DNA of 64,000 nucleotides from an uncultured Ottowia sp. (GTDB taxonomy: Bacteria; Pseudomonadota; Gammaproteobacteria; Burkholderiales; Burkholderiaceae_C). Shown here in pieces: positions 35,716 through 46,718 of this stretch. Location of the stretch: positions 28,090-92,089 of the forward strand of contig CAZHSD010000005.1 in assembly GCA_964534975.1 (NCBI GenBank), given 5' to 3'. A model generated the notes under the pieces. The model searched no databases and was not told where the DNA came from. It saw only the letters and a program-made list of their open reading frames with translations. Positions within the stretch are counted from its first letter, which is position 1; every line of letters starts with the position of its first letter. The position numbers were made by a program, and so were the translations under genes.

Positions 35716-36843
35716 CTATCCCGCACGCCGGCGCTCGGATGCCGGTTTGGCGCGGGCGTACTTCCACCAGGGCAGCACCCGCGCCATCGATCGCACCTCG
35801 CCACCGTGCGAGCTGCGATAGCCGGGCAGCGCGTGCAGCACCTGCTGCCAGGCGGCGCTGGCCAGGATCTGCCGCAAGGCCGCCACCGGCGGGGTCTCCA
35901 GCGCCGACTTCAGGCACACCAGGTGGTAGTCCTCTTCCACCAGCGGCACGAAATCGAGCCCGCGCGCGCGCGCCGCAGCCTCGATGCCCAGGCCGAGGTC
36001 GGCCTGGCCGGCGGCCACCGTCTGCGCCACGGCGGCGTGCGAGGGTTCGTCGTGCCGGTAGCCCCGCACCCGTTCCGGCGCGATGCCGGCCTGCGCCAGC
36101 AACTCGTCCAGCAGCACGCGGGTGCCGGTGCCGTGTGGCCGGTTGACGAAGCGCAGCTCGGTGCGCATCAGGTCCTGGAGGCCGGCAATGCGATGTGGAT
36201 TGCCACTGGCCACCATCAGCCCCTGCGTGCGGGTGGCGAAGCCGATCAGCTTGTGCAGACCGGGTTGCAGCAGCGGCTTGTAGGTGCGCTCGGCCAGCGA
36301 GCCGACCGGCGCGTCGCGCGGGGCGTGGAAGCCGGCCATGATGCAGCGCCCCTGGTTGAGCGCCTGGATGGCGTCGACGCTGCCCATGAAGCGGATCTCC
36401 AGGTGCAGCCGCGGACGGCCGGGCACGCCGGTCACGTGGGAGCGCAGCGCGCTCAGCGCGTCGTCGTGGCTGGCGGAAAAGCGCAGCACGTGGGTGTCGT
36501 CGTCGAAGGCGACCGCGAAGCTGCGCTGCAGCTCGGCGCGCAGCGCCTCGATCTGCGGCGCCAGCCGCGCCTGCGCCTGGCGCTCGGACCACAGCAGCTT
36601 GTCGCCGAAGCTCGACAGGCGCGCCGGCTTGCCCTTTTCCCATTCCAGCAGCGGGTGGCCCAGCCGCTGCTCCCAGCGCCTGAGCTCGCCCCAGACGTGC
36701 CGATATGACAGGCCCAGCGATTCGGCCGCGCTCTTGATCGAGCCGCTGGCGCGCACCGCCTGCAGCAGGTCGATCAAGGGGTTGCGGATCAGGGCGTTGC
36801 CAGCGTCGGCGTCGAGCGAGTACGAAAGCCCAATCTGGTGCAT
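35716..36843 (-). CDS. Regulator with ModE-like HTH and C-terminal periplasmic-binding-like domain
   Basis: GSIKSAAESLGLSYRHVWG HTH; ASHD, GSVDA, FVNRPHGTGTR, ADLGLG; divergent from tupBCA. Confidence 0.88.
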   Translation of the reverse strand: MHQIGLSYSLDADAGNALIRNPLIDLLQAVRASGSIKSAAESLGLSYRHVWGELRRWEQRLGHPLLEWEKGKPARLSSFGDKLLWSERQAQARLAPQIEALRAELQRSFAVAFDDDTHVLRFSASHDDALSALRSHVTGVPGRPRLHLEIRFMGSVDAIQALNQGRCIMAGFHAPRDAPVGSLAERTYKPLLQPGLHKLIGFATRTQGLMVASGNPHRIAGLQDLMRTELRFVNRPHGTGTRVLLDELLAQAGIAPERVRGYRHDEPSHAAVAQTVAAGQADLGLGIEAAARARGLDFVPLVEEDYHLVCLKSALETPPVAALRQILASAAWQQVLHALPGYRSSHGGEVRSMARVLPWWKYARAKPASERRRAG

Positions 36844-36902
36844 GCGCCAAGTGTGCCCGATCCGCTCGCCCGGACCGCGACCAGGGCTTCGACCGCGTTT
36901 GA

Positions 36903-36920
36903 TATGCAATCATTTGCATA
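36903..36920. promoter_or_regulatory. Palindromic operator candidate between the regulator and tupB
   Basis: TATGCAA-TCAT-TTGCATA perfect inverted repeat, AT-rich in a GC-rich context. Confidence 0.65.
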
Positions 36921-36971
36921 GCTTGGAGCCCCATGGGCATGAGGGTTTGCGCAGGGTTTAGGATTCGGACC

Positions 36972-37709
36972 ATGGTGAACACCTTCGCCGACAGCGCGCA
37001 CACCGCGCTGGCTCTCATCGCCTCGTTCGACCCGACGCTGTGGACCATCGTCGCGCGCTCGCTGGCCGTCAGCGGCACCGCCTGCCTGATCGGCTACGGC
37101 ATCGGCCTGCTGGCCGGCGCCTGGCTGGGCGTGAGCCGTTTTTGCGGGCGCGGTGGCGTGCTGACGGTGCTCAACACGATGCTCGCGCTGCCTTCGGTGG
37201 TGGTCGGCCTGATGGTGTACCTGCTCTTGTCGCGCAGTGGGCCGCTGGGCTTTCTGGGCTGGATGTTCACTTTCCAGGCCATGGTGATCGCGCAGGTGGT
37301 GCTGGTGGTGCCGGTGGTGACCGCGTTGACGCGCCAGGCGGTCGAGGACGCCGACGTGCTGCACGGCGAGCAGCTCAGCTCGCTCGGCGCCAGCCGCTTC
37401 ATGCGCGGCCTGCTGCTGGCCTGGGACGAGCGCTACGCGCTGCTGACGGTGCTGATGACGGCGTTCGGCCGCGCGGTGTCGGAGGTGGGCGCGGTGATGA
37501 TCGTCGGCGGCAACATCGACGGCTTCACGCGCGTGATGACCACCGCCATCGCGCTGGAAACCAGCAAGGGCGACCTGCCGCTGGCGCTGGGCCTTGGCAT
37601 CGTGCTGCTGTCGGTGGTGCTGGCGCTGAACGCCTTGATCTCGCTGGTGCGCGGCTGGCGCGAACAGATCGATGGCGTTGCGGCCACGCGCGTGCTGGTG
37701 GCCACATGA
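36972..37709 (+). CDS. tupB: Tungstate ABC permease
   Basis: LPSVVVGL, SRSGPLG, FGRAVSEVGAVMIVGGNI, TTAIALETSKG. Confidence 0.9.
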   Translation: MVNTFADSAHTALALIASFDPTLWTIVARSLAVSGTACLIGYGIGLLAGAWLGVSRFCGRGGVLTVLNTMLALPSVVVGLMVYLLLSRSGPLGFLGWMFTFQAMVIAQVVLVVPVVTALTRQAVEDADVLHGEQLSSLGASRFMRGLLLAWDERYALLTVLMTAFGRAVSEVGAVMIVGGNIDGFTRVMTTAIALETSKGDLPLALGLGIVLLSVVLALNALISLVRGWREQIDGVAATRVLVAT

Positions 37710-38509
37710 ACGCGCCGCACGCCGCGATGCGCCTGGATGGCGCGGCCTGGCGCCAGGCGGCGTCGGCGCTGCGAGACCAGGTGGCGCTGGCGCCGCCGCT
37801 GATCTCCCTGCGTGGCATTGGCGTGCGCTTCGGCGCCGTGCAGGCGCTGCAGGACGTCACGCTGGACATCGCCGCCGGCGAGAGCGTGGCACTGATCGGC
37901 GGCAACGGCTGCGGCAAGAGCACGCTGCTGCGGGTGGTGCATGGCCTGATCGGCGCGAGCGCCGGCCAGCGGCAGGCGCCGCCGCGCCAGACCCAGGCCA
38001 TGCTGTTCCAGCGGCCCTGGATGCTGCGCACCAGCGTGCGCAACAACATCGCCATCGGCCTGTGGCTGCGCGGCGCGCCCTGGAGCCAAGCCAAGGAGCG
38101 GGCGCTGCGGGCGCTCGATCGCGTCCAGATGCGCGATCTGGCGGCGCGCAGCGCACGCGGCCTCTCGGGCGGCCAGCAGCAGCGCCTGGCGCTGGCGCGC
38201 GCCTGGGCCCAGCAGCCGCAGCTGCTGCTGCTGGACGAACCCACGGCCAGCCTGGACCCCCACGCCAAGCACGAGGTCGAGGCGCTGCTGCAGGAATTCG
38301 GCCGGCCGCCGGCCGATGGCGGACCGGCGCTGACCACGGTGTTCGCCAGCCACAACCTGGGCCAGGTCAAGCGGCTGGCGCGGCGCGTGATCTACCTGGA
38401 GCGCGGGCGCGTGCTGGCCGATCTGGCCGTGGAGCTGTTCTTCAACCCCGACGTGCTGCGCGTCGTCTCGCCCGAGGCCGATCTGTTTCTGAAAGGAGAG
38501 TTGCTATGA
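37706..38509 (+). CDS. tupC: Tungstate ABC ATPase
   Basis: GGNGCGKST, LSGGQQQR, LLDEPTASLD; ATGA-coupled to tupB. Confidence 0.88.
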   Translation: MNAPHAAMRLDGAAWRQAASALRDQVALAPPLISLRGIGVRFGAVQALQDVTLDIAAGESVALIGGNGCGKSTLLRVVHGLIGASAGQRQAPPRQTQAMLFQRPWMLRTSVRNNIAIGLWLRGAPWSQAKERALRALDRVQMRDLAARSARGLSGGQQQRLALARAWAQQPQLLLLDEPTASLDPHAKHEVEALLQEFGRPPADGGPALTTVFASHNLGQVKRLARRVIYLERGRVLADLAVELFFNPDVLRVVSPEADLFLKGELL

Positions 38510-39333
38510 GCTGGTTCCAGTCCTTCAAGCCTTCGATGGTCATCAAGTCGGCGCTGGCGGCGTCGGTGTGGGTGGCGTCGCTGGCGGCATCGGCGCAGTC
38601 GATCGTCGTCGCCTCGACCACGTCGACCGAGCAATCGGGCCTGTTCGCGCACCTGCTGCCCGAGTTCAAGCAGGCCAGCGGCATCGACGTCAAGGTGGTG
38701 GCGCTGGGCACCGGCCAGGCACTCGACACCGGCCGCCGCGGCGATGCCGACGTGGTGTTCGTGCACGACAGTCAAGCGGAGGAGAAATTCGTTGCCGACG
38801 GCTTCGGCGTCAAGCGCTATCCGGTGATGTACAACGACTTCATCCTGATCGGGCCGAAGAACGATCCGGCAGGCGCGCGCGGCAATGACATCGTCGAGGG
38901 CCTGAAGAAATTGGCCACCGCGGGCGCGCCCTTCGTCTCGCGCGGCGACAAGAGCGGCACGCACGCGGCCGAGTTGCGTTTCTGGGACCAGGCCGGCCTG
39001 AAGGATGCCAAGGGCAGCGGCTACAAGGAATGCGGCTGCGGCATGGGTCCGGCGCTGAACATGGCCGCGTCGACCGGCGCCTACGTGCTGGCCGATCGCG
39101 GCACCTGGCTCAACTTCAAGAACCGCGCCGACCTGGCGATTCTGGTCGAGGGCGACAAGCGCCTGTTCAACCAGTACGGCGTGATGGTGGTCAACCCCGC
39201 CAAGCACCCGCAGGTCAAACAGGCCGAGGCGCAGAAGTTCGTCGACTGGGTGACCTCGCCGGCCGGCCAGGCGGTGATCGCCAGCTACAAGATCGGCGGC
39301 GAGCAGCTGTTCTTTCCCAATGCCGACAAGTAG
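38506..39333 (+). CDS. tupA: Tungstate-binding protein
   Basis: ASTTSTEQSGL, GTGQAL, MYNDF, SRGDKSGTH, LFNQYG. Confidence 0.92.
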   Translation: MSWFQSFKPSMVIKSALAASVWVASLAASAQSIVVASTTSTEQSGLFAHLLPEFKQASGIDVKVVALGTGQALDTGRRGDADVVFVHDSQAEEKFVADGFGVKRYPVMYNDFILIGPKNDPAGARGNDIVEGLKKLATAGAPFVSRGDKSGTHAAELRFWDQAGLKDAKGSGYKECGCGMGPALNMAASTGAYVLADRGTWLNFKNRADLAILVEGDKRLFNQYGVMVVNPAKHPQVKQAEAQKFVDWVTSPAGQAVIASYKIGGEQLFFPNADK

Positions 39334-39418: not shown

Positions 39419-40173
39419 ATGCGTGCGGCCCGGCCGGTGTCGGCACCGGTGTCCGTGTACGCCGCCGGCAGCCTGCGCGAGGCGCTGAGCGCGATCGCGC
39501 GGGAACACGAGGCGGACACCGGACAGCAGATCGCGCTCACCTTCGGTGCCTCCGGCCTGCTGCGCGAGCGCATCGAGCGCGGCGAGGGCGCGCAGCTGTT
39601 CGCGTCCGCCGATACCGGGCATCCGCAGCGTCTGGCTGCCGCCGGCGGCTGGCAGGCGCCGGTGGTGTTCACTTGCAATCAGCTGTGCGCGCTGACCAGC
39701 GAGCGCATCGAGGTCACGCGGACATGCTGCTGGCGACACTGCTCGACCCCAAGGTGCGCGTCGGCACCTCGACACCCCGGGCCGACCCGTCGGGCGACTA
39801 TGCCTGGGCCTTGTTCCGCCGCGCCGAACAGCTGCAGCGCGGTGCCTACGCGGCCCTGGATGCCAAGGCGCTCAAGCTCACCGGCCACCCATCCGCACCG
39901 CAGGCACCGAAGGGCCGCGGCACCTACGCCTGGCTGATGGACGCGGGCCACGCCGATGTGTTCCTGACCTACCGCAGCAACGCCATCGCGGCGCGGAAGG
40001 AAGTGCCGCGCCTGAAGCTGGTGCCGCTGCCCGAGGCGCTGCGGGTGGGGGCCGACTACGGCCTGGGCGTTCGCCATGAGGCGCCGGCCGCGGCGCTGCA
40101 CTTTGCACGCCGCCTGCGTGAACCGCCGGCGCAGGCCGTGCTGCAGTCGCTGGGCTTTGGCGCGCCAGGCTAG
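39419..40173 (+). pseudogene. ModA-like oxyanion-binding protein, frameshifted near 39719 and lacking a clear signal peptide
   Basis: VYAAGSLREAL, FGASGLL, FASAD in one frame; TSTPRADPSGDY, VGADYGL in another. Confidence 0.85.
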
Positions 40174-40219: not shown

Positions 40220-41398
40220 TCAGTCCAGCACCGCCACGCCCTTGATCTGCGCGAACAGCGCCTGGCCGGGTGCCAGCCGCAACGCCTCGGCGGACTTGCG
40301 CGTCACGCGTGCCAGCAGCGGCGTGTCGCCGGCGTCCAGCACGACCAGGGTTTGCGCCGGCCCGTCGGCGGCCAGCGAGCGCACCGTGGCCGGCACCACG
40401 TTGAGGATGCTGGAGTCGGTGGCGGGCGCCAGCGCCAGGCTGACGTCGCGCGCCTGCACGCGCAGGCGCACGCGTTCGCCCGCCCGGCGCGGCGCGTGCC
40501 CGGGCGTGTGAACGCATTGCACGCTGCCGCCGGCGAAGCCCACGTGCAGCAGCTGGTAGTCGGCATCGAGACGCTCGACCACGCCGTCGATCAGCGCGCT
40601 GGCGCCGTCGCCGTGCGCCAGCGACAGGTCGAGCCGCGTCATCAGCTCGCCCACCGGGCCTTGCGCAACCACGCGGCCGGCGTCCAGCAGCAGCATGTGA
40701 TCGGCCAGGCGCGCCACCTCGTCGAGCGAGTGCGTCACGTACAGCATCGGGATGCGCAGCTCGCGCACCACGCGCTCGAACCAGGGCAGCACCTCGGCCT
40801 TGCGCGCCGCGTCCAGCGCCGCCAGCGGCTCGTCCATCAGCAGCAGGCGCGGGCTGGTGGCCAGCGCGCGCGCGATCGCCACGCGCTGGCGCTCGCCGCC
40901 CGACAGCTGCGCCGGCCGCCGGTCCAGCAGGTGGCCGATGCCGAGCAGCTCGACCGCCTGCGCCAGCGACACCTGGCGCTTGGCCGGCGGCACGCGCCGC
41001 ATGCCGAAATCGAGATTGCGCTGCACCGTCAGGTGATCGAACAGGCTGGCTTCCTGGAATACCACGCCCAGCGGGCGCTGGTGCGTCGGAAGCCAGATGC
41101 CGGCCGCATCGTCCTGCCACACGTCGCCGGCGACGACGATGCGCCCCGGCCTGGGACGCGTCAGGCCGGCGACGGCGCGCAGCAAGGTGGTCTTGCCGCA
41201 GCCCGAGGGGCCGAACAGGACCGTGACGCCATGGCCCGGCAAGCGCACATCGACGTCGAGCGAGAAGGCCGCGCTGTAGCGGATCAGGGCGCGTGCCTGC
41301 AACGCGTCGGTGTCGGACCGGCGCGGATCCGGCGTGGCGCTGGCGCCGCCGATGACGTCGGCGATGGCCGTGGCGGCAGCGGGGTTGGGCCGGCTCAC
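40220..41398 (-). CDS. modC: Molybdate ABC ATPase
   Basis: [25 protein letters not shown]-terminal TOBE (SSILN...QIKGVA); GTG start overlapping the modB stop. Confidence 0.95.
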
Positions 41399-42075
41399 GG
41401 TGCTTTGCGCGCCTGCGTCAGATGCAGCATCAGCAGCACCAGGAAGCTGAACGCCAGCATGCCGCCGGCCAGCCAGTGCGCCTGCGCGTATTCCAGCGAT
41501 TCGACGTGGTCGTAGATCTGCACCGAGATGGTCCGTGTCTGGCCGGGGATGTTGCCGCCGATCATCAGCACCACGCCGAACTCGCCCAGCGTGTGCGCGA
41601 AGCCCATCACGGCGCCGGTCAGGTAGCCGGGCCGCGCCAGCGGCAGCGCCACGTGCCAGAAGGCGTCCAGCGGCCCGGCGCGCAAGGTGGCGGCGGCCTC
41701 CAGCGGGCGCTGGCCGATGGTTTCGAAGGCATTGATCAGCGGCTGCACCACGAACGGCAGCGAATAGATGATCGAGCCGATCAGCAGGCCCCAGAAGCTG
41801 AAGGAGAGCAGGCCCCAGCCCAGCGCCTGCGTGATCAGGCCCAGCGGCCCGTTCGGCCCCATCGCCACCAGCAGGTAGAAGCCCAGCACCGTGGGCGGCA
41901 GCACCAGCGGCAGCGACACCAGGGCGCGCACCGGCACCCGCAACCAGTTCCAGCGTCGCGAGCCGCGTGCGATCCACCAGGCCAGCGGCGTGCCGGCCAC
42001 CATCAGGATCAGCGTGGCCAGGATCGACAGTTCGATCGAAAGGCGGACGGCCGCCAGGCCGGTGGCATCTAGCAT
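41395..42075 (-). CDS. modB: Molybdate ABC permease
   Basis: [35 protein letters not shown]. Confidence 0.96.
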
Positions 42076-42084
42076 GAAAGGACT

Positions 42085-42268
42085 TCGATGGCGCTCGATG
42101 AGGTCGCCGCTGCGCGGTGTCGATGCTGAAACGACGGGAGCACGGTGACCGGATGTCGTGGAAACGCGAAATTGTCGGTCATGGATTGGCGCCGGCCGGC
42201 CCGTCGTCGCCTCGGCGTCCGCCGCACGGTCATCCGCGCCGCACGGACGCGGCCCGGGTCATCGTCAT
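42085..42268. repeat. Degenerate GTCAT-anchored hairpin array between modA and modB
   Basis: GTCAT at ~42178, 42229, 42258, 42264 with GC-rich stems between; resembles elements at 50.3, 52.1 and 61.1 kb. Confidence 0.45.
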
Positions 42269-43038
42269 TTGACCTCGTAGCCGAAGCTGCGAATGAACTC
42301 CTTCGACTGCGGCGTGCGCAGCAGGTCCATCCAGGCCTTGGCAGCGGGGTTGTCCGCGGCGCGCCTGAGGATCACCGCGTCCTGGATGATCGGCGCGTGG
42401 TACTGCGCCGGCACCACCCACATCGAGCCGCCTTTCAGCTTGCCGCCGTCCAGCACCTGTGCCATCGCCACGAAGCCCAGGTCGGCGTTGCCGGTGGCGA
42501 CGAAGTTGTAGGTCTGGCCGATGCTCTCGCCGGTCACCAGCTTGGGCTGCAGCGCGGCGCTCAGGCCCAGTTTTTCCATGGCCTCGACGGCGGCGGCGCC
42601 GTAGGGCGCGTTCTTGGGGTTGGCGATGGCCAGCTTGCCGAACTGGCCCCTCTTGAGCACCTCGCCCTTGTCGTCGACCAGTCCCTGCTTGGCCGACCAC
42701 AGCACCAGCTGGCCGGTGGCGTAGGTGAAGCGCGAGCCGGGTACGGTGTCGCCTTCCTTTTCCAGCCGGATCGGACGCTCGTCGTCGGCCGCCAGCAACA
42801 CGTCGAAGGGTGCGCCCTGCTTGATCTGGGTGTAGAACCCGCCGGTGGGGCCGAACGACAGCTTGGCTTCGTGGCCGGTGGTCTTGGCGAAGATCTCGGC
42901 CAGGGCCTTGGCCGGCGCGGTGAAGTTGGCGGCCACGGCCACGTTGACGACGTCGGCGTGGGCCGTCGCGGCGGCGAGCGAGACGATCAGTGTGGCGGTC
43001 AAGCCGAGCAGGCGGCGCAGCGTGTTGGGCGGGGTCAT
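42265..43038 (-). CDS. modA: Molybdate-binding protein
   Basis: Signal peptide, VAVAANF, GAPFDVLLAAD, ANPKNAPYGAAA, GFVA, PIIQDA. Confidence 0.96.
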   Translation of the reverse strand: MTPPNTLRRLLGLTATLIVSLAAATAHADVVNVAVAANFTAPAKALAEIFAKTTGHEAKLSFGPTGGFYTQIKQGAPFDVLLAADDERPIRLEKEGDTVPGSRFTYATGQLVLWSAKQGLVDDKGEVLKRGQFGKLAIANPKNAPYGAAAVEAMEKLGLSAALQPKLVTGESIGQTYNFVATGNADLGFVAMAQVLDGGKLKGGSMWVVPAQYHAPIIQDAVILRRAADNPAAKAWMDLLRTPQSKEFIRSFGYEVK

Positions 43039-43093: not shown

Positions 43094-43118
43094 TCGTTAT
43101 TCAAATTGAGAATAGCGA
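43094..43118. promoter_or_regulatory. ModE-type box at the modA promoter
   Basis: TCGTTATTC-N7-GAATAGCGA, adjacent to a minus-strand TACACT (-10) at 43118-43123. Confidence 0.85.
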
Positions 43119-43139: not shown

Positions 43140-44318
43140 TCATCTGGCGAATGGATCGGCGAAGCGCGGATCGGTCGCGATCGCCCCATCGGTCAGCGTG
43201 TGCAGGAACGCCAGCAGGTCGGCCTTGTCCCGGGCGTCGATGTCGATCTGGTCGATCAGCGGGTCCTTGAAGGGATTGGCGCGGCCATCGCCGGCGTAGG
43301 GGCCGTTGCCCATCTGGCGGCCGCCGTCGGCGTGGATGTCGAGCACCGCTTCCAGCGTGGCGACGCTGCCGTCGTGGAAGTAGGGCGCGGTCAGCGCCAC
43401 GTTGCGCAGGCCGGGGGCGCGAAAGCGCCCCATGTCCTCGGCGCGTGCGCTGAACTCGAACAGGCCGCGGTTGGGCGCCGGATAGGCGCCCTGGCCATCG
43501 AGGTTGTAGAGACCGAGGTTGTGGAACGCGGGCGCGCCGCTGCTGCCGTTCAGGCTGGCGAACTGGCCGCTGAAGTTGGGGCCACCATGGCAGGCGGCGC
43601 AGCGCGCACGCTCGCCGAAGAACAGCTGCTGGCCGCGCTGCTCGGCCGGCGTCAGCGCGATCTGGCCAGCCTGCGCCTGGTCGTAGCGGCTGCCGGCGGC
43701 GATCAGCGTGCGCTCGAAGGTGGCGATCGCCTTGATGATGTTGTCCCAGTGGATCGGCGCCGCTTCACCCTGGAAGGCGGCGGCAAAGCGCGCCGGGTAG
43801 CCGGCGTCGCGCCGCAGGCGATCGAGCACCTGTTCGCGGTTGCCGTCGTTGACGCCCATCTCCACCGGCTGGGTGCCGAACAGCGGCGCCTGCATCTGCT
43901 GCTCGAGCGTGCGCTGGCTCGGGTTGGCCCAGTCCAGCGTCAGTTGGTAGGCGACGTTGATCAGGCCCGGCGAGTTGCGCGGGTGGCTCTGGCCGGTGGA
44001 GCCGCGCGCCACCGAGCGGCTGTCGGCAAAGGCGCGCTCCGGCGCATGGCAGCTGGCGCACGATTGCGTGCCGTTGCCCGACAGGCGCACGTCGTGGAAC
44101 AGGTGCCGGCCGAGTTCGACCTTGGCCGCGTTCATCGGATTGTCGGCCGGCACCACGGGCGCTGCGAAGCCCGCCGGCAGGCTCCATTGCCATGGCGCCG
44201 GCGGCGCGCCAGGGGGTGCTTCGGCGGCGACGGAATCATCGCCGCCGCCGCAGGCGCTCAGGCCGACGACGGCCAGCAGGGCGGCGATCAGGGTGGGCAG
44301 TGGTCGGATACGGGGCAT
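43140..44318 (-). CDS. MbnH/MauG-like di-heme cytochrome c lipoprotein
   Basis: LSAC lipobox, PADNPM..AKVELGRHLF, CASCH, WANP, CAACH, FRAPGLRNVALTAPYFHDGS, GDGRANP. Confidence 0.9.
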   Translation of the reverse strand: MPRIRPLPTLIAALLAVVGLSACGGGDDSVAAEAPPGAPPAPWQWSLPAGFAAPVVPADNPMNAAKVELGRHLFHDVRLSGNGTQSCASCHAPERAFADSRSVARGSTGQSHPRNSPGLINVAYQLTLDWANPSQRTLEQQMQAPLFGTQPVEMGVNDGNREQVLDRLRRDAGYPARFAAAFQGEAAPIHWDNIIKAIATFERTLIAAGSRYDQAQAGQIALTPAEQRGQQLFFGERARCAACHGGPNFSGQFASLNGSSGAPAFHNLGLYNLDGQGAYPAPNRGLFEFSARAEDMGRFRAPGLRNVALTAPYFHDGSVATLEAVLDIHADGGRQMGNGPYAGDGRANPFKDPLIDQIDIDARDKADLLAFLHTLTDGAIATDPRFADPFAR

Positions 44319-44350
44319 CGGAGATCCTTGTCGCAAGCCGGTCGATGTAG

Positions 44351-44373
44351 CGCTATTCAATTATAGAATAGCG
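44351..44373. promoter_or_regulatory. Second ModE-type box between the divergent lipoprotein genes
   Basis: Perfect CGCTATTC-AATTATA-GAATAGCG; contains TATAAT (minus, 44360-44365) and TAGAAT (plus, 44364-44369). Confidence 0.88.
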
Positions 44374-44410
44374 ATTCTCTCATCACCACGACACCGAAAG
44401 CGAGCAAGAC

Positions 44411-45376
44411 ATGAGCACTGCATCCATTCCCCTGAACCCGCGCCGCGGACTGTGGGCGCACGCCCGGCGCGCGCTGCTGGTGGGCGCGTCGGCGGCCCTG
44501 CTGGCGCTGGGCGCCTGCGGTGGCGGCGGCGATGACGTCGATCGCGGTCCGACGACGATTCCGGTCGCGGCCAAGCTCAACGGCCTGTTCTGGGATGCCC
44601 AGGAGTCGCGGCTGTATCTGACCGATGACGATGCCAACGCCGTCAAGAGCTGGGACGGCGGCGAGAAGTTCTCCACCGCGTTCGAGCTGCCAAAAATGGA
44701 GGAAGGCCAGCGCCCGACGCTGGGCCAGCTCACGCGCGGGCCGGGCGGGCACCTGTACATCACGCGCTTCGGTTTCGGCAGCTACGGCACGGTGCTGGTG
44801 GCGCCGAAAGCGGGGGCGGCCTACCGGCTCGACACGCTGGATCCGACGCGCCGGCGCATCAGCCTGATCGCCGCGCCCGATGGCGCGCTGCTCGACGGCT
44901 GGTTCCGCGGCGGCACGGCGGGTGCCAGCAGCGGCAACATCAGCGAGGTGGCCATCCAGGGCGGCCAGGCCAGCGAGCGCGAGCTGGTCACCGGCCTGAA
45001 CAAGCCGGTGGGGCTGGCGGTGGTCGGGGACAAGCTGTTCGTGGCGGACCAGGGCGCCGCGGAACTGCGCGTGCATTCGCTGGCGGTGGTGCGCCGGCAG
45101 CCCGCCGCTGCTGCCGATGGGCAGTTGCTGGCCGCCTTCACGCCGGCCGACGGGCTGGACCTGATGACGGCAAGCCAGGATGGGACCCTGTACGTCGCCA
45201 GCAGCCGCGGTGCGATCTATCGGATCGGCGCTGACGCCAAGGTCGCGACGCTGGTGAGCGGCTGGCCCGGCATCCGCGGTCTGGCGCTGGACGCCGACAA
45301 CCGCCGCCTGTTCGCGGCCGTGACCGCCGTCGATGACGAGAGCCCGTCCACCATCCGCATCGTGCCGCTGGATTAG
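44411..45376 (+). CDS. Uncharacterised beta-propeller (NHL/SMP-30-like) lipoprotein
   Basis: LGAC-GGGGDD lipobox; blade-like repeats NGLFWD..LYLTD, PVGLAVVGDKLFVAD, RGLALDADNRRLF. Confidence 0.8.
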   Translation: MSTASIPLNPRRGLWAHARRALLVGASAALLALGACGGGGDDVDRGPTTIPVAAKLNGLFWDAQESRLYLTDDDANAVKSWDGGEKFSTAFELPKMEEGQRPTLGQLTRGPGGHLYITRFGFGSYGTVLVAPKAGAAYRLDTLDPTRRRISLIAAPDGALLDGWFRGGTAGASSGNISEVAIQGGQASERELVTGLNKPVGLAVVGDKLFVADQGAAELRVHSLAVVRRQPAAAADGQLLAAFTPADGLDLMTASQDGTLYVASSRGAIYRIGADAKVATLVSGWPGIRGLALDADNRRLFAAVTAVDDESPSTIRIVPLD

Positions 45377-45481
45377 GGCGTGTTCGCAGCTCCAACAATC
45401 GCGTTAACATGCCCTAAGCCGGCGGTCGCGCCGCAGATCGACCAGGCCATCCATGCGTTCGTCAACGGCACAATGCATGAC

Positions 45482-46240
45482 ATGGCCCAGCGACTTCTCT
45501 CCACCCGATCCCTGGGCTATGCCCAGGCCGACAAGCGCATCGACATCCTGAAGCAGGTGGCGCGCCATGGCTCGATCTCCGAGGCGGCGCGCTCGGCCGG
45601 CGTCAGCTACAAGGCGGCCTGGCAGGCGATCCACACGCTGACCAACCTGGCGGGCGAGCCGCTGGTCGACAGCAGCGTGGGTGGCGCCGGCGGCGGCGGC
45701 GCCCAGATCACCGCCGCCGGCGAACGCCTGCTGCACGCCGCCGAACTGATGGACCAGGCCCGGCGCCGGGTGCTGGCGCGCCTGAATGCGCCGGGTGGTG
45801 CGGCGGCCAGCGCGCTGGGCGCGCCGCGCACCAGCATGCGCAACCACCTGCGCTGCACGGTGGCCGAGCTGCTGAGCGAGGACGCGCGCGATCCGATGGT
45901 GCGCGTGGTGCTGGCGCTCGACGGCGGCGGCCGGCTGACTTCGCTGATCACGCGCGAGAGCGCCGAGCTGCTGGCGCTGGAACCCGGCCTGACGGTGCTG
46001 GCGCTGGCCAAGGCGACCGCGGTGCAGGTGGAGGCGGGCGCGGCCGGCGATGCCGAAGACAACCATCTGCCGGGGCGCGTGCTGCGCCTCTCGCGCGGCG
46101 TGCAACGCGACGAGGTCACGCTGACGCTGGCCGGCGATCAGCAGCTGGTGGGTTTTGCCGCGCGGCCCAATCGCCTGCGCGGCGGCAGCCGCGTGCGGGC
46201 GCGGCTGGACGAGAGCGCGGTGGTGATCGCGCTGGGTTGA
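45482..46240 (+). CDS. modE: Molybdate-responsive regulator ModE (HTH + TOBE)
   Basis: GSISEAARSAGVSYKAAW, GGAGGGGA, RTSMRN, ITRESAELL, AKATAV; start may be 45473. Confidence 0.9.
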   Translation: MAQRLLSTRSLGYAQADKRIDILKQVARHGSISEAARSAGVSYKAAWQAIHTLTNLAGEPLVDSSVGGAGGGGAQITAAGERLLHAAELMDQARRRVLARLNAPGGAAASALGAPRTSMRNHLRCTVAELLSEDARDPMVRVVLALDGGGRLTSLITRESAELLALEPGLTVLALAKATAVQVEAGAAGDAEDNHLPGRVLRLSRGVQRDEVTLTLAGDQQLVGFAARPNRLRGGSRVRARLDESAVVIALG

Positions 46241-46289: not shown

Positions 46290-46718
46290 ATGAAAACCAG
46301 TGCACGCAACCATTTCGAAGGCACCGTGACCCAGCTCAAGGCCGGCGCGGTGAACGACGAGGTCGAGATCGGCACCGCCGGCGGCGTGAAGATCGTCGCC
46401 ATCATCACCCATGAGAGCGCCAGCGGGCTGGCGCTGGCAACGGGCAAGCCGGCGTTTGCGCTTATCAAGGCCTCGTCGGTCATCGTCGTCGCCGACCAGG
46501 GCAGCGCGCGTTTTTCCACCCGCAACCGGCTGGTTGGCACGGTGGCGCGCGTGCAGCCCGGCGCCGTCAACACCGAGGTGGTGATCGACGTCGCTCCCGG
46601 CACCAGCGTGGCCGCCATCGTGACCAACGAGAGTGCCGAGCGGCTCGGCCTGGCCGCGGGCAAGCCGGCGACGGCGATCTTCAAGGCCTCCAGCGTGATT
46701 GTCGGTGTGCCGGGCTGA
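46290..46718 (+). CDS. Tandem TOBE/Mop molbindin (ModG-like)
   Basis: Two repeats S(A/T)RN...GAVN.EV...KASSVI. Confidence 0.93.
   Translation: MKTSARNHFEGTVTQLKAGAVNDEVEIGTAGGVKIVAIITHESASGLALATGKPAFALIKASSVIVVADQGSARFSTRNRLVGTVARVQPGAVNTEVVIDVAPGTSVAAIVTNESAERLGLAAGKPATAIFKASSVIVGVPG

Follow-up and report, generated by a model that had tools for sequence, protein, structure and literature searches.

We describe here two divergently transcribed lipoprotein genes in a 64,000-nucleotide stretch of DNA from an uncultured Ottowia sp. (contig CAZHSD010000005.1; the whole stretch is called the window), one encoding a di-heme enzyme of the MbnH family (mbnH) and the other a six-bladed β-propeller of an unnamed family. 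The pair is real and conserved, and it is an apparently undescribed variant of the MbnH-partner kind that lies in a molybdenum regulon and carries a natural swap of a heme ligand. We propose tentatively, at somewhat less than even chances, that it is a molybdenum-starvation module repressed by ModE, in which a peroxidase derived from MbnH, with MbnP lost, pairs with the propeller and frees molybdate for the transporter ModABC. The regulatory part of this model is strongly supported; its chemistry we infer.

A conserved pair of divergent lipoprotein genes

The mbnH gene (43140-44318, minus strand) encodes a protein of 392 amino acids with an LSAC lipobox at Cys23 and CxxCH motifs at residues 87 and 240, and the propeller gene (44411-45376, plus strand) encodes one of 321 amino acids with an LGAC lipobox at Cys36. 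They diverge from a gap of exactly 92 bp (44319-44410) and lie between modA on one side and modE and mop on the other. Coordinates and lipoboxes agree with the initial annotation of this DNA, which had described such a pair and had seen the palindrome of the modA promoter in the gap as well. The palindrome spans 23 bp at 44351-44373, leaving 32 bp to the start of mbnH and 37 bp to that of the propeller gene, and its second copy, with one half-site difference, precedes modA at 43095-43117. Contigs from four studies cover the cassette, and no indels are listed in either gene.

To see how the pair is distributed, we relied on a propeller alignment search, which collected 40 loci from GTDB genomes and 21 from metagenomes; a single-protein locus search of genome contigs matched nothing. 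Among the 40 GTDB loci, the enzyme gene is divergent in 25 (split by a frameshift in one), a remnant in 1 and absent in 14. The 23-bp box occurs in 31 of the 40, a 23- or 24-bp box in 36, and a box or a molybdenum gene in 39. All 25 loci with both genes carry the box, with modA within 4.5 kb in 12 of them and no molybdenum gene near in 10, some of which lie on short contigs. The pair recurs in Comamonadaceae, relocates together to unrelated sites and keeps its box even away from the mod cluster. The proposal of a conserved, ModE-linked envelope module is borne out by these 25 loci, and homologs that rarely co-occur or lack boxes, which the initial annotation had named as evidence against it, are not what we found.

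The two genes could be mere passengers inserted between modA and modE, with the box serving the autoregulation of modE only. Both same-genus genomes that were searched show modA, box and modE without the cassette, and in the window the propeller gene leads directly into modE and mop, as this would predict. However, the box is retained in 10 of 10 pair loci that have no nearby molybdenum gene and also before lone propellers, which largely refutes the passenger explanation and leaves it very improbable indeed.

A variant ModE operator in the gap

A scan of the whole 3.43-Mb genome of the window (G000) found three sites with at most one mismatch to the palindrome, the next-best sites having three. 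Two of the three precede modA genes; the site other than those in the gap and before modA, at G000:C37:15122, stands before a second modA-like gene, which is followed by a modB-like gene and modD. The core of the box, TATTC-N7-GAATA, is one base shorter than the E. coli-type ModE consensus of 28 bp (PMC545781), and a site of canonical spacing (spacer of 8, fewer than three mismatches to the window half-site) was absent from G000.

The neighbouring modE gene (45473-46240, plus strand, start codon inferred) encodes a protein with a helix-turn-helix and a TOBE domain (PF00126 and PF03459). It scores over the cut-off of TIGR00638 (65.5 versus 55) and under those of TIGR00637 (87.1 versus 98.5) and PRK10676 (144.7 versus 369), the latter two results being consistent with a divergent subfamily. 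The recognition helix of this subfamily has Gln, as against Asp in the neighbouring canonical ModE, and the subfamily retains the TOBE Ser/Arg/Thr/Lys motifs, which we take to be the molybdate site. Of 201 family genomes, 47 carry the subfamily (46 at E values of 5e-45 or better, plus one split gene), and the exact 23-bp box was found in 44 of these 47 but in only 1 of the 154 genomes without it. Conversely, 44 of 45 box-positive genomes carry the subfamily; the genomes are kin and not independent, so we read the co-occurrence as a pattern and not as a significance test. Among genomes that bear the propeller, 28 of 35 have the box, at one to four sites each, compared with 2 matches in 35 for a reversed-pattern control.

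Beyond the pair, box sites precede modA and modE, second modA genes, an operon for a cytochrome c and a SoxC-like protein, another cytochrome c gene and a sigma-54 regulator. Some boxes in family genomes precede TonB receptors, and a few box sites are unexplained. The median distance from the box to the first start codon is 27 bp for the enzyme and 40 bp for the propeller (24 loci, crude start call); a sigma-70 promoter and terminator scan gave no match. The likeness to the E. coli-type ModE regulon lies in a helix-turn-helix and TOBE regulator beside modABC and mop and in palindromic CGyTAT half-sites before modA. The differences are the shorter box with TATTC half-sites, the Gln-type ModE subfamily, and a regulon that takes in a di-heme enzyme and a propeller lipoprotein.

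With high confidence we regard the 23-bp box as a variant ModE operator, to which ModE is predicted to bind. The initial description of the pair as ModE-boxed holds, with the refinement that the box is not the canonical one. Repression of both divergent genes by ModE is likely, because the box lies mid-gap and both promoters would overlap it.

Two other regulators were considered and ruled out. The palindrome tracks the ModE subfamily and mod genes and is not of the Fur or Zur type. An upstream regulator with helix-turn-helix and periplasmic-binding-protein (HTH-PBP) domains, at 35716-36909, is also present in loci with only 24-bp boxes (L051 and L053).

The box also drew attention to other genes. 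In 6 of the 40 GTDB loci (L028:6217-6702, L030, L031, L038 and L039 among them), mbnH is followed by a TrmO/TsaA-family gene on the same strand. This gene remains beside the box in L049, which has lost mbnH, and in L114 it lies opposite a modA with a box; it is a candidate further member of the ModE regulon. In L120:540-3901, L086, L095, L116, L118 and L122, a 23-bp box precedes a cytochrome c gene and then a SoxC-like molybdoenzyme operon, possibly a ModE-activated target. TonB-dependent receptors found right behind ModE boxes or inside molybdenum islands (L202:1575-3023, L221:1445-3022 and L021:1951-3945) are candidate receptors for molybdate or a molybdenum chelate.

An MbnH-family enzyme with a different partner

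Of the two kinships first offered for the enzyme, MbnH and MauG, the former holds: it scores 445.8 bits against TIGR04039 (MbnH; cut-off 362.85) and 145.7 against TIGR03791 (MauG; cut-off 443.85). Its best match in the PDB is 6E1C (E value 1.6e-125), aligned over residues 36-390. The hallmarks of MbnH are present, namely both CxxCH motifs, the inter-heme Trp, the distal Gln, Pro and Glu, and the calcium-site residues, and the columns W130, Q141, P145, E153, N115, T310 and P312 are invariant across 28 rows; for MauG W93 and the calcium ligands the customary numbering is assumed. The enzyme keeps the residues that match MauG Q103, P107, E113 and T67, as indicated by MauG chains mutated at these positions, which score below wild-type MauG. 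By sequence, the peroxide-activating side of the enzyme, at the five-coordinate heme, looks intact. A fold model of the enzyme was poor (predicted local distance difference test (pLDDT) of 56, no hemes) and was used for PDB titles only.

What differs is the partner. MbnP and MbnH have been described as a conserved pair (PMC3621798), but TIGR04052 (MbnP) has no match in G000, which is 100% complete, in agreement with the initial annotation; the WxW-bearing partner that defines the MbnH/MbnP system (GenProp0940) is thus lacking there. Of 35 propeller genomes, 2 do have an MbnP, in each case next to a separate mbnH of its own. The 301 family genomes include 28 that pass the MbnH cut-off, and 29 loci from this set divide into 25 with an adjacent MbnP, 3 with the propeller and 1 with neither. 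A search that started from the enzyme in two genera (48 and 77, together 125 genomes) returned 27 loci, heavily overlapping those from the propeller search: 19 have the propeller and the box, 8 have MbnP and no box, and none has both partners or neither. All 35 propeller-linked enzymes fall on one side of a branch (Shimodaira-Hasegawa-like approximate likelihood ratio test, 99) in a quick, unrooted tree of 60 rows that leaves out L036 (split) and L154 (stop) and carries no one-clade test. The propeller-linked MbnH proteins form a single clade that never adjoins MbnP. The ratio of non-synonymous to synonymous substitution rates (dN/dS) is 0.24-0.39 in the closest pairs, which alone are informative, as the medians of 0.38 and 0.49 are inflated by saturation at high GC content.

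Compared with MbnH/MbnP (6E1C), the window system keeps the enzyme with its heme motifs, inter-heme Trp and distal residues, a single partner lipoprotein gene and a setting in metal homeostasis. It departs from it in that the partner is an unrelated propeller, divergently transcribed, in a genome without MbnP; in that the setting is molybdenum or tungsten and ModE, not copper; and in an axial Tyr that has become His in the window subclade. With MauG the enzyme shares the di-heme fold and the pocket residues for peroxide activation, but no mau genes are in the neighbourhood and there is no Trp at the position of MauG W199 (W199E and W199K chains score higher). Several MbnH-family enzymes are publicly annotated as 'methanobactin export MATE transporter MbnM' (L288:7570-8724; P0249, P0290 and P0332), an evident misannotation.

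A natural Tyr-to-His change at the heme ligand

Residue His329 of the window enzyme (codon at 43332-43334, minus strand) aligns with MauG residue 294, with a Tyr of 6E1C and with Met280 of the canonical peroxidase 6QKN, the position of an axial ligand of the six-coordinate heme. Among MauG chains, only that of the Y294H mutant (3ORV) aligns locally as far as residue 294, and over the full length of the protein, too, it scores above wild type. The window enzyme and every one of the 20 rows of its subclade (support 100) have His at position 329, and the other 15 of the 35 propeller-linked rows have Tyr; in 25 MbnP-linked rows the residue is Tyr in 23 and Phe in 2. Of the nearest 120 homologs, 43 are of the His type, all with a linked change of Met314 to Leu or Phe. 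Phe or Met stands at the aligned position in some MbnP-linked MbnH proteins (L276, L277, L279, L147 and L159), so other heme-ligand variants may exist in MbnH, although local shifts in the alignment may also account for them.

The defining feature of MauG-type di-heme enzymes (MauG, BthA and MbnH) is a six-coordinate heme with His-Tyr ligation (PMC11892367). By alignment, the window enzyme would have neither this ligation nor the His-Met ligation of canonical bacterial cytochrome c peroxidases, and His329 is predicted to ligate the iron. BthA Y463H, like MauG Y294H, loses the bis-Fe(IV) band and still reduces H2O2 with an external donor in the case of BthA (PMC6405878). The natural enzyme bears the same Tyr-to-His change as these mutants, but in the window subclade the His was fixed by evolution and not engineered. 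Because His replaces Tyr and the engineered mutants lose bis-Fe(IV), a role as a peroxidase-type oxidant is, judged from its sequence, more likely for the window enzyme than one in long-range maturation of Trp, and the idea of Trp modification is weakened for this copy.

That idea nevertheless deserves to be weighed. The enzyme would oxidize a Trp of the propeller to kynurenine or a quinone and so create a metal site or catalytic cofactor useful under molybdenum limitation. The nearest characterized relative does this to MbnP (PMC11951088), whose genomic place the propeller takes exclusively, and the complex prediction described below lends it weak support. The propeller has five Trp residues and, as first noted, no WxW motif. 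The propeller clade that travels with the enzyme has W285, which enzyme-less outgroup propellers lack, but this residue survives loss of the enzyme and its pattern follows one clade; W164 is equally conserved in enzyme-less propellers. The 15 enzymes that keep Tyr make maturation more plausible for their group, whereas the His in the window, in 20 of 20 subclade rows and in 43 of the 120 nearest homologs speaks against it. Overall, we consider Trp maturation unlikely.

The propeller is an older member of the regulon

The propeller is modelled with six blades (pLDDT 87.5). Drp35 is a fold match with Z 27.6, a root-mean-square deviation of 2.8, 265 aligned residues and 16% identity, and the fold matches as a whole are lactonases and NHL domains of 9-19% identity, tied in Z with no standout, among which pyrroloquinoline quinone (PQQ) sugar dehydrogenases also appear. 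Sequence-based assignments are equally generic: the protein scores 21.9 bits against Pfam SGL (PF08450), under the cut-off of 26.3; its public annotation is hypothetical; the clusters that match it in a protein atlas are hypothetical or of a generic NHL/SGL kind; and profile searching against PDB sequences yielded generic propeller repeats. The wider family comprises 146 representatives at E values up to 1e-30, with far homologs that include Minicystis rosea, and in a sample taken across the phylum the propeller turned up in just 1 of 400 other genomes.

R149, K198, D250, R289, D213-Q214 and an RFG motif are conserved across 62 diverse propellers. By the strand positions of the model, the starts of the inner strands hold N57, Q106, R148-R149, K198, D250 and R289. 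Given propeller topology, these would line the mouth of the central channel and form a mostly cationic pocket. Only N57 and D250 match the metal-site blade positions of lactonases, in a comparison by position and not by residue-level superposition; the lactonase/SMP-30 pattern has four ligands, Glu/Asn/Asn/Asp. The window protein thus shares the six-bladed fold of SMP-30, gluconolactonase and NHL propellers (Drp35, RPA3624) and differs in being a lipoprotein, 16% identical and under the Pfam cut-off, whose blade entrances carry Arg and Lys and probably not a full acidic metal site.

These comparisons bear on the possibility that the propeller is itself catalytic, a hydrolase or a quinoprotein-like dehydrogenase, whose electrons the bis-His di-heme protein relays, the two acting as a molybdenum-independent replacement enzyme or as a ModE-activated helper of a molybdoenzyme. 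Lactonases as top fold matches and the presence of PQQ sugar dehydrogenases would fit, as would the SoxC-like operon in the regulon and the cassettes that adjoin molybdoenzyme genes. There is also a precedent in hydrazine synthase, in which a propeller subunit is associated with a MauG-like di-heme one whose electron-transfer heme is bis-His ligated (its beta and gamma subunits; PMC12607021), but the window enzyme is far under that family's cut-off (37.5 versus 625 bits), and the organisms and the chemistry are different. The low identities, the tie in Z and the two lone metal-ligand positions argue against a catalytic propeller, and the neighbours are mostly uptake and storage genes. We regard a replacement or helper enzyme as quite improbable. 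In a separate search, no tungsten aldehyde oxidoreductase (PF02730) was found in G000, which has 6 matches to PF00384 and 3 to PF02738.

An analogy in setting, and an analogy only, is offered by XusB and BtuG of Bacteroides, propeller lipoproteins of metal uptake; for XusB, metal-siderophore complexes are bound inside the pocket or next to it (PMC13142918). Those propellers have seven blades and are encoded with TonB transporters, whereas the window propeller has six and no TonB receptor beside its genes; a TonB receptor does lie near distant propeller homologs. The fold matches listed include no propeller of nutrient capture such as XusB, which is not an exclusion.

The propeller reaches beyond the enzyme. 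Mapped on a propeller tree, the enzyme falls within a single clade, several branches of which lack it, and outgroup propellers without MbnH adjoin modABC, nifQ, mop, a TonB receptor and a tandem pair of amino acid (AA)-kinase-fold genes, presumably a molybdenum storage protein. Of 247 scored Burkholderiaceae genomes, 24 have the propeller, with a canonical ModE box upstream in 11 of the 24 (versus 2 in 2,400 shuffles) and a divergent Oxidored_molyb gene in 11 of the 24. Since canonical ModE boxes accompany distant copies that lack MbnH and adjoin nifQ, mop or modA, the propeller is an older member of the molybdenum regulon than the enzyme, and since it occurs without any MbnH in 14 of the 40 loci, it does not depend on the enzyme.

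Two other kinds of locus are of interest in themselves. A molybdenum island without MbnH (L051:8000-16979 and L053) holds modABC, the propeller, nifQ, two ModE paralogs, a porin, a binding protein and a TonB receptor, and in L051 only the storage-protein-like tandem AA-kinase-fold pair. Caballeronia-type loci (L059:3398-7897 and L254) have a DUF2325 gene and a small Oxidored_molyb-domain gene with canonical ModE boxes, by a short ModE with only the helix-turn-helix.

The age of the propeller raises the question of whether the two genes share anything more than regulation. The propeller would then be a stand-alone lipoprotein that binds molybdenum or tungsten or otherwise handles molybdenum, and the enzyme an orphaned MbnH caught by a bidirectional ModE promoter, a plain periplasmic peroxidase or electron carrier with no physical tie to the propeller. 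This would account for a propeller-molybdenum link that predates the enzyme, with outgroups that lack MbnH and sometimes have the divergent Oxidored_molyb gene in its stead, for the repeated loss of the enzyme, and for a Tyr-to-His change that fits plain peroxidase activity. However, the clade enzyme was never found without the propeller in the enzyme-first search (19 of 19) and the pair relocates together; the dN/dS of close pairs and the many fixed changes in the His subclade also count against it. Shared regulation alone seems to us a rather unlikely explanation.

A predicted complex and a model for molybdate release

Prediction of the enzyme-propeller complex, on alignments made in this analysis, gave interaction prediction scores from aligned errors (ipSAE) of 0.58, 0.58 and 0.55, against 0.00 for the best of three controls; 116 of 157 solved pairs reach the mark on this score, as do 2 of 215 mismatched ones, and of those that reach it, 18 of the 157 and both of the mismatches score at most 0.60. 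Contacts agree in at least 90% between runs, and the partner pLDDT is at least 88. Overall, we would give even chances to a complex of the two lipoproteins. The initial annotation had the enzyme modify the propeller or work with it: working together is supported by the genomic evidence and weakly by the structural prediction that it had called for, and oxidation of Trp is not supported for the window copy, in which His329 replaces Tyr.

In the model we favour, molybdate-bound ModE would keep mbnH and the propeller gene off, and under molybdenum shortage both would be made alongside ModABC. The propeller would capture an anionic molybdenum or tungsten species, such as a chelate, a thiomolybdate or reduced molybdenum, in the envelope. 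The enzyme, docked on the propeller, would oxidize the captured species with H2O2 at its five-coordinate heme, by compound-I-type and not bis-Fe(IV) chemistry, and release molybdate for ModABC. Parallels by analogy are ligand capture by propeller lipoproteins such as XusB and the copper release proposed for MbnPH, where mbnP and mbnH deletions leave copper-bound methanobactin (PMC13729199). That the Arg- and Lys-lined mouth holds such an anion and that the enzyme oxidizes it is a doubtful possibility, well short of even. Equally speculative is the evolutionary account, in which the MbnH scaffold would have moved from copper to molybdenum homeostasis, exchanged MbnP for the propeller and, in one lineage, the axial Tyr for His, the propeller-bound bis-His enzyme now acting a step before ModABC to free molybdate or tungstate oxidatively from reduced forms or chelates.

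Several observations weigh against this model. The pocket was placed from strand positions and not from inspected coordinates, and one of its residues, R289, is variable among propellers of the Comamonas group. As for the complex, its score is a weak one, and the predictor may have drawn on known assemblies, since MauG-preMADH and hydrazine synthase likewise join a di-heme protein to a propeller. The enzyme has been lost or broken several times within its clade (remnant in L043, split in L036), which, together with the 14 of 40 loci in which the propeller has no adjacent enzyme, indicates that the partnership is dispensable. The Tyr kept by 15 of the 35 propeller-linked enzymes means that the clade may not share a single chemistry. 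Among the 24 Burkholderiaceae propeller loci, 13 have no box at the threshold used and about half have no molybdenum gene within 1.5 kb, and one plasmid copy of the propeller lies among unrelated genes. Finally, the loci are related by descent, some being near-duplicates, and do not count as independent.

Neighbouring genes in the window

The modA gene (42265-43038, minus strand) encodes a molybdate-binding protein (TIGR01256, 231.4 versus a cut-off of 62.5) and is followed by modB (41395-42075) and then modC, which ends at 40220. Downstream of modE, a gene at 46290-46718 (plus strand) encodes a mop/ModG-like molybdate-binding protein with a double TOBE domain (TIGR00638, 137.4 versus 55). A second modA-like gene of the PRK03537 family (39419-40173, plus strand) is split by a frameshift. 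Contigs from runs X4 and X11 agree with the window here and those from X7 and X9 are off by one base in length, so the frameshift is a strain difference and not an assembly error. A tupABC-like tungstate transporter with the divergent HTH-PBP regulator occupies 35716-39333; it is probably under separate control, because no 23-bp box lies upstream.

Discussion

A link of MbnH to ModE or molybdate, this propeller and the 23-bp box found no description in the full-text literature searched; the primary papers on MbnH, MbnP, Y294H and the ModE survey, with their supplements, lay outside that search, and a prior mention in them is possible. MbnH has been described as the partner of MbnP in copper handling, and in the present case an entire clade is tied to a different partner and a different metal regulator. 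Within this clade, Tyr and His forms part at the heme ligand on which the choice between long-range oxidation of proteins and ordinary peroxidase chemistry depends, a question so far probed, within the literature searched, by engineered mutants. The 23-bp box and its ModE subfamily provide a usable marker of the regulon, and the propeller, an unnamed but widely kept member of the ModE regulon in two Burkholderiales families, is a lead on how molybdenum is captured before ModA. Cultured carriers of both forms can be named, Ottowia thiooxydans DSM 14619 for His and Comamonas odontotermitis and Diaphorobacter caeni for Tyr, so the model is testable step by step. If it is true, these bacteria would have an enzymatic step of molybdenum mobilization in the envelope, and the family would offer a natural Tyr/His pair with which to test the purpose of bis-Fe(IV).

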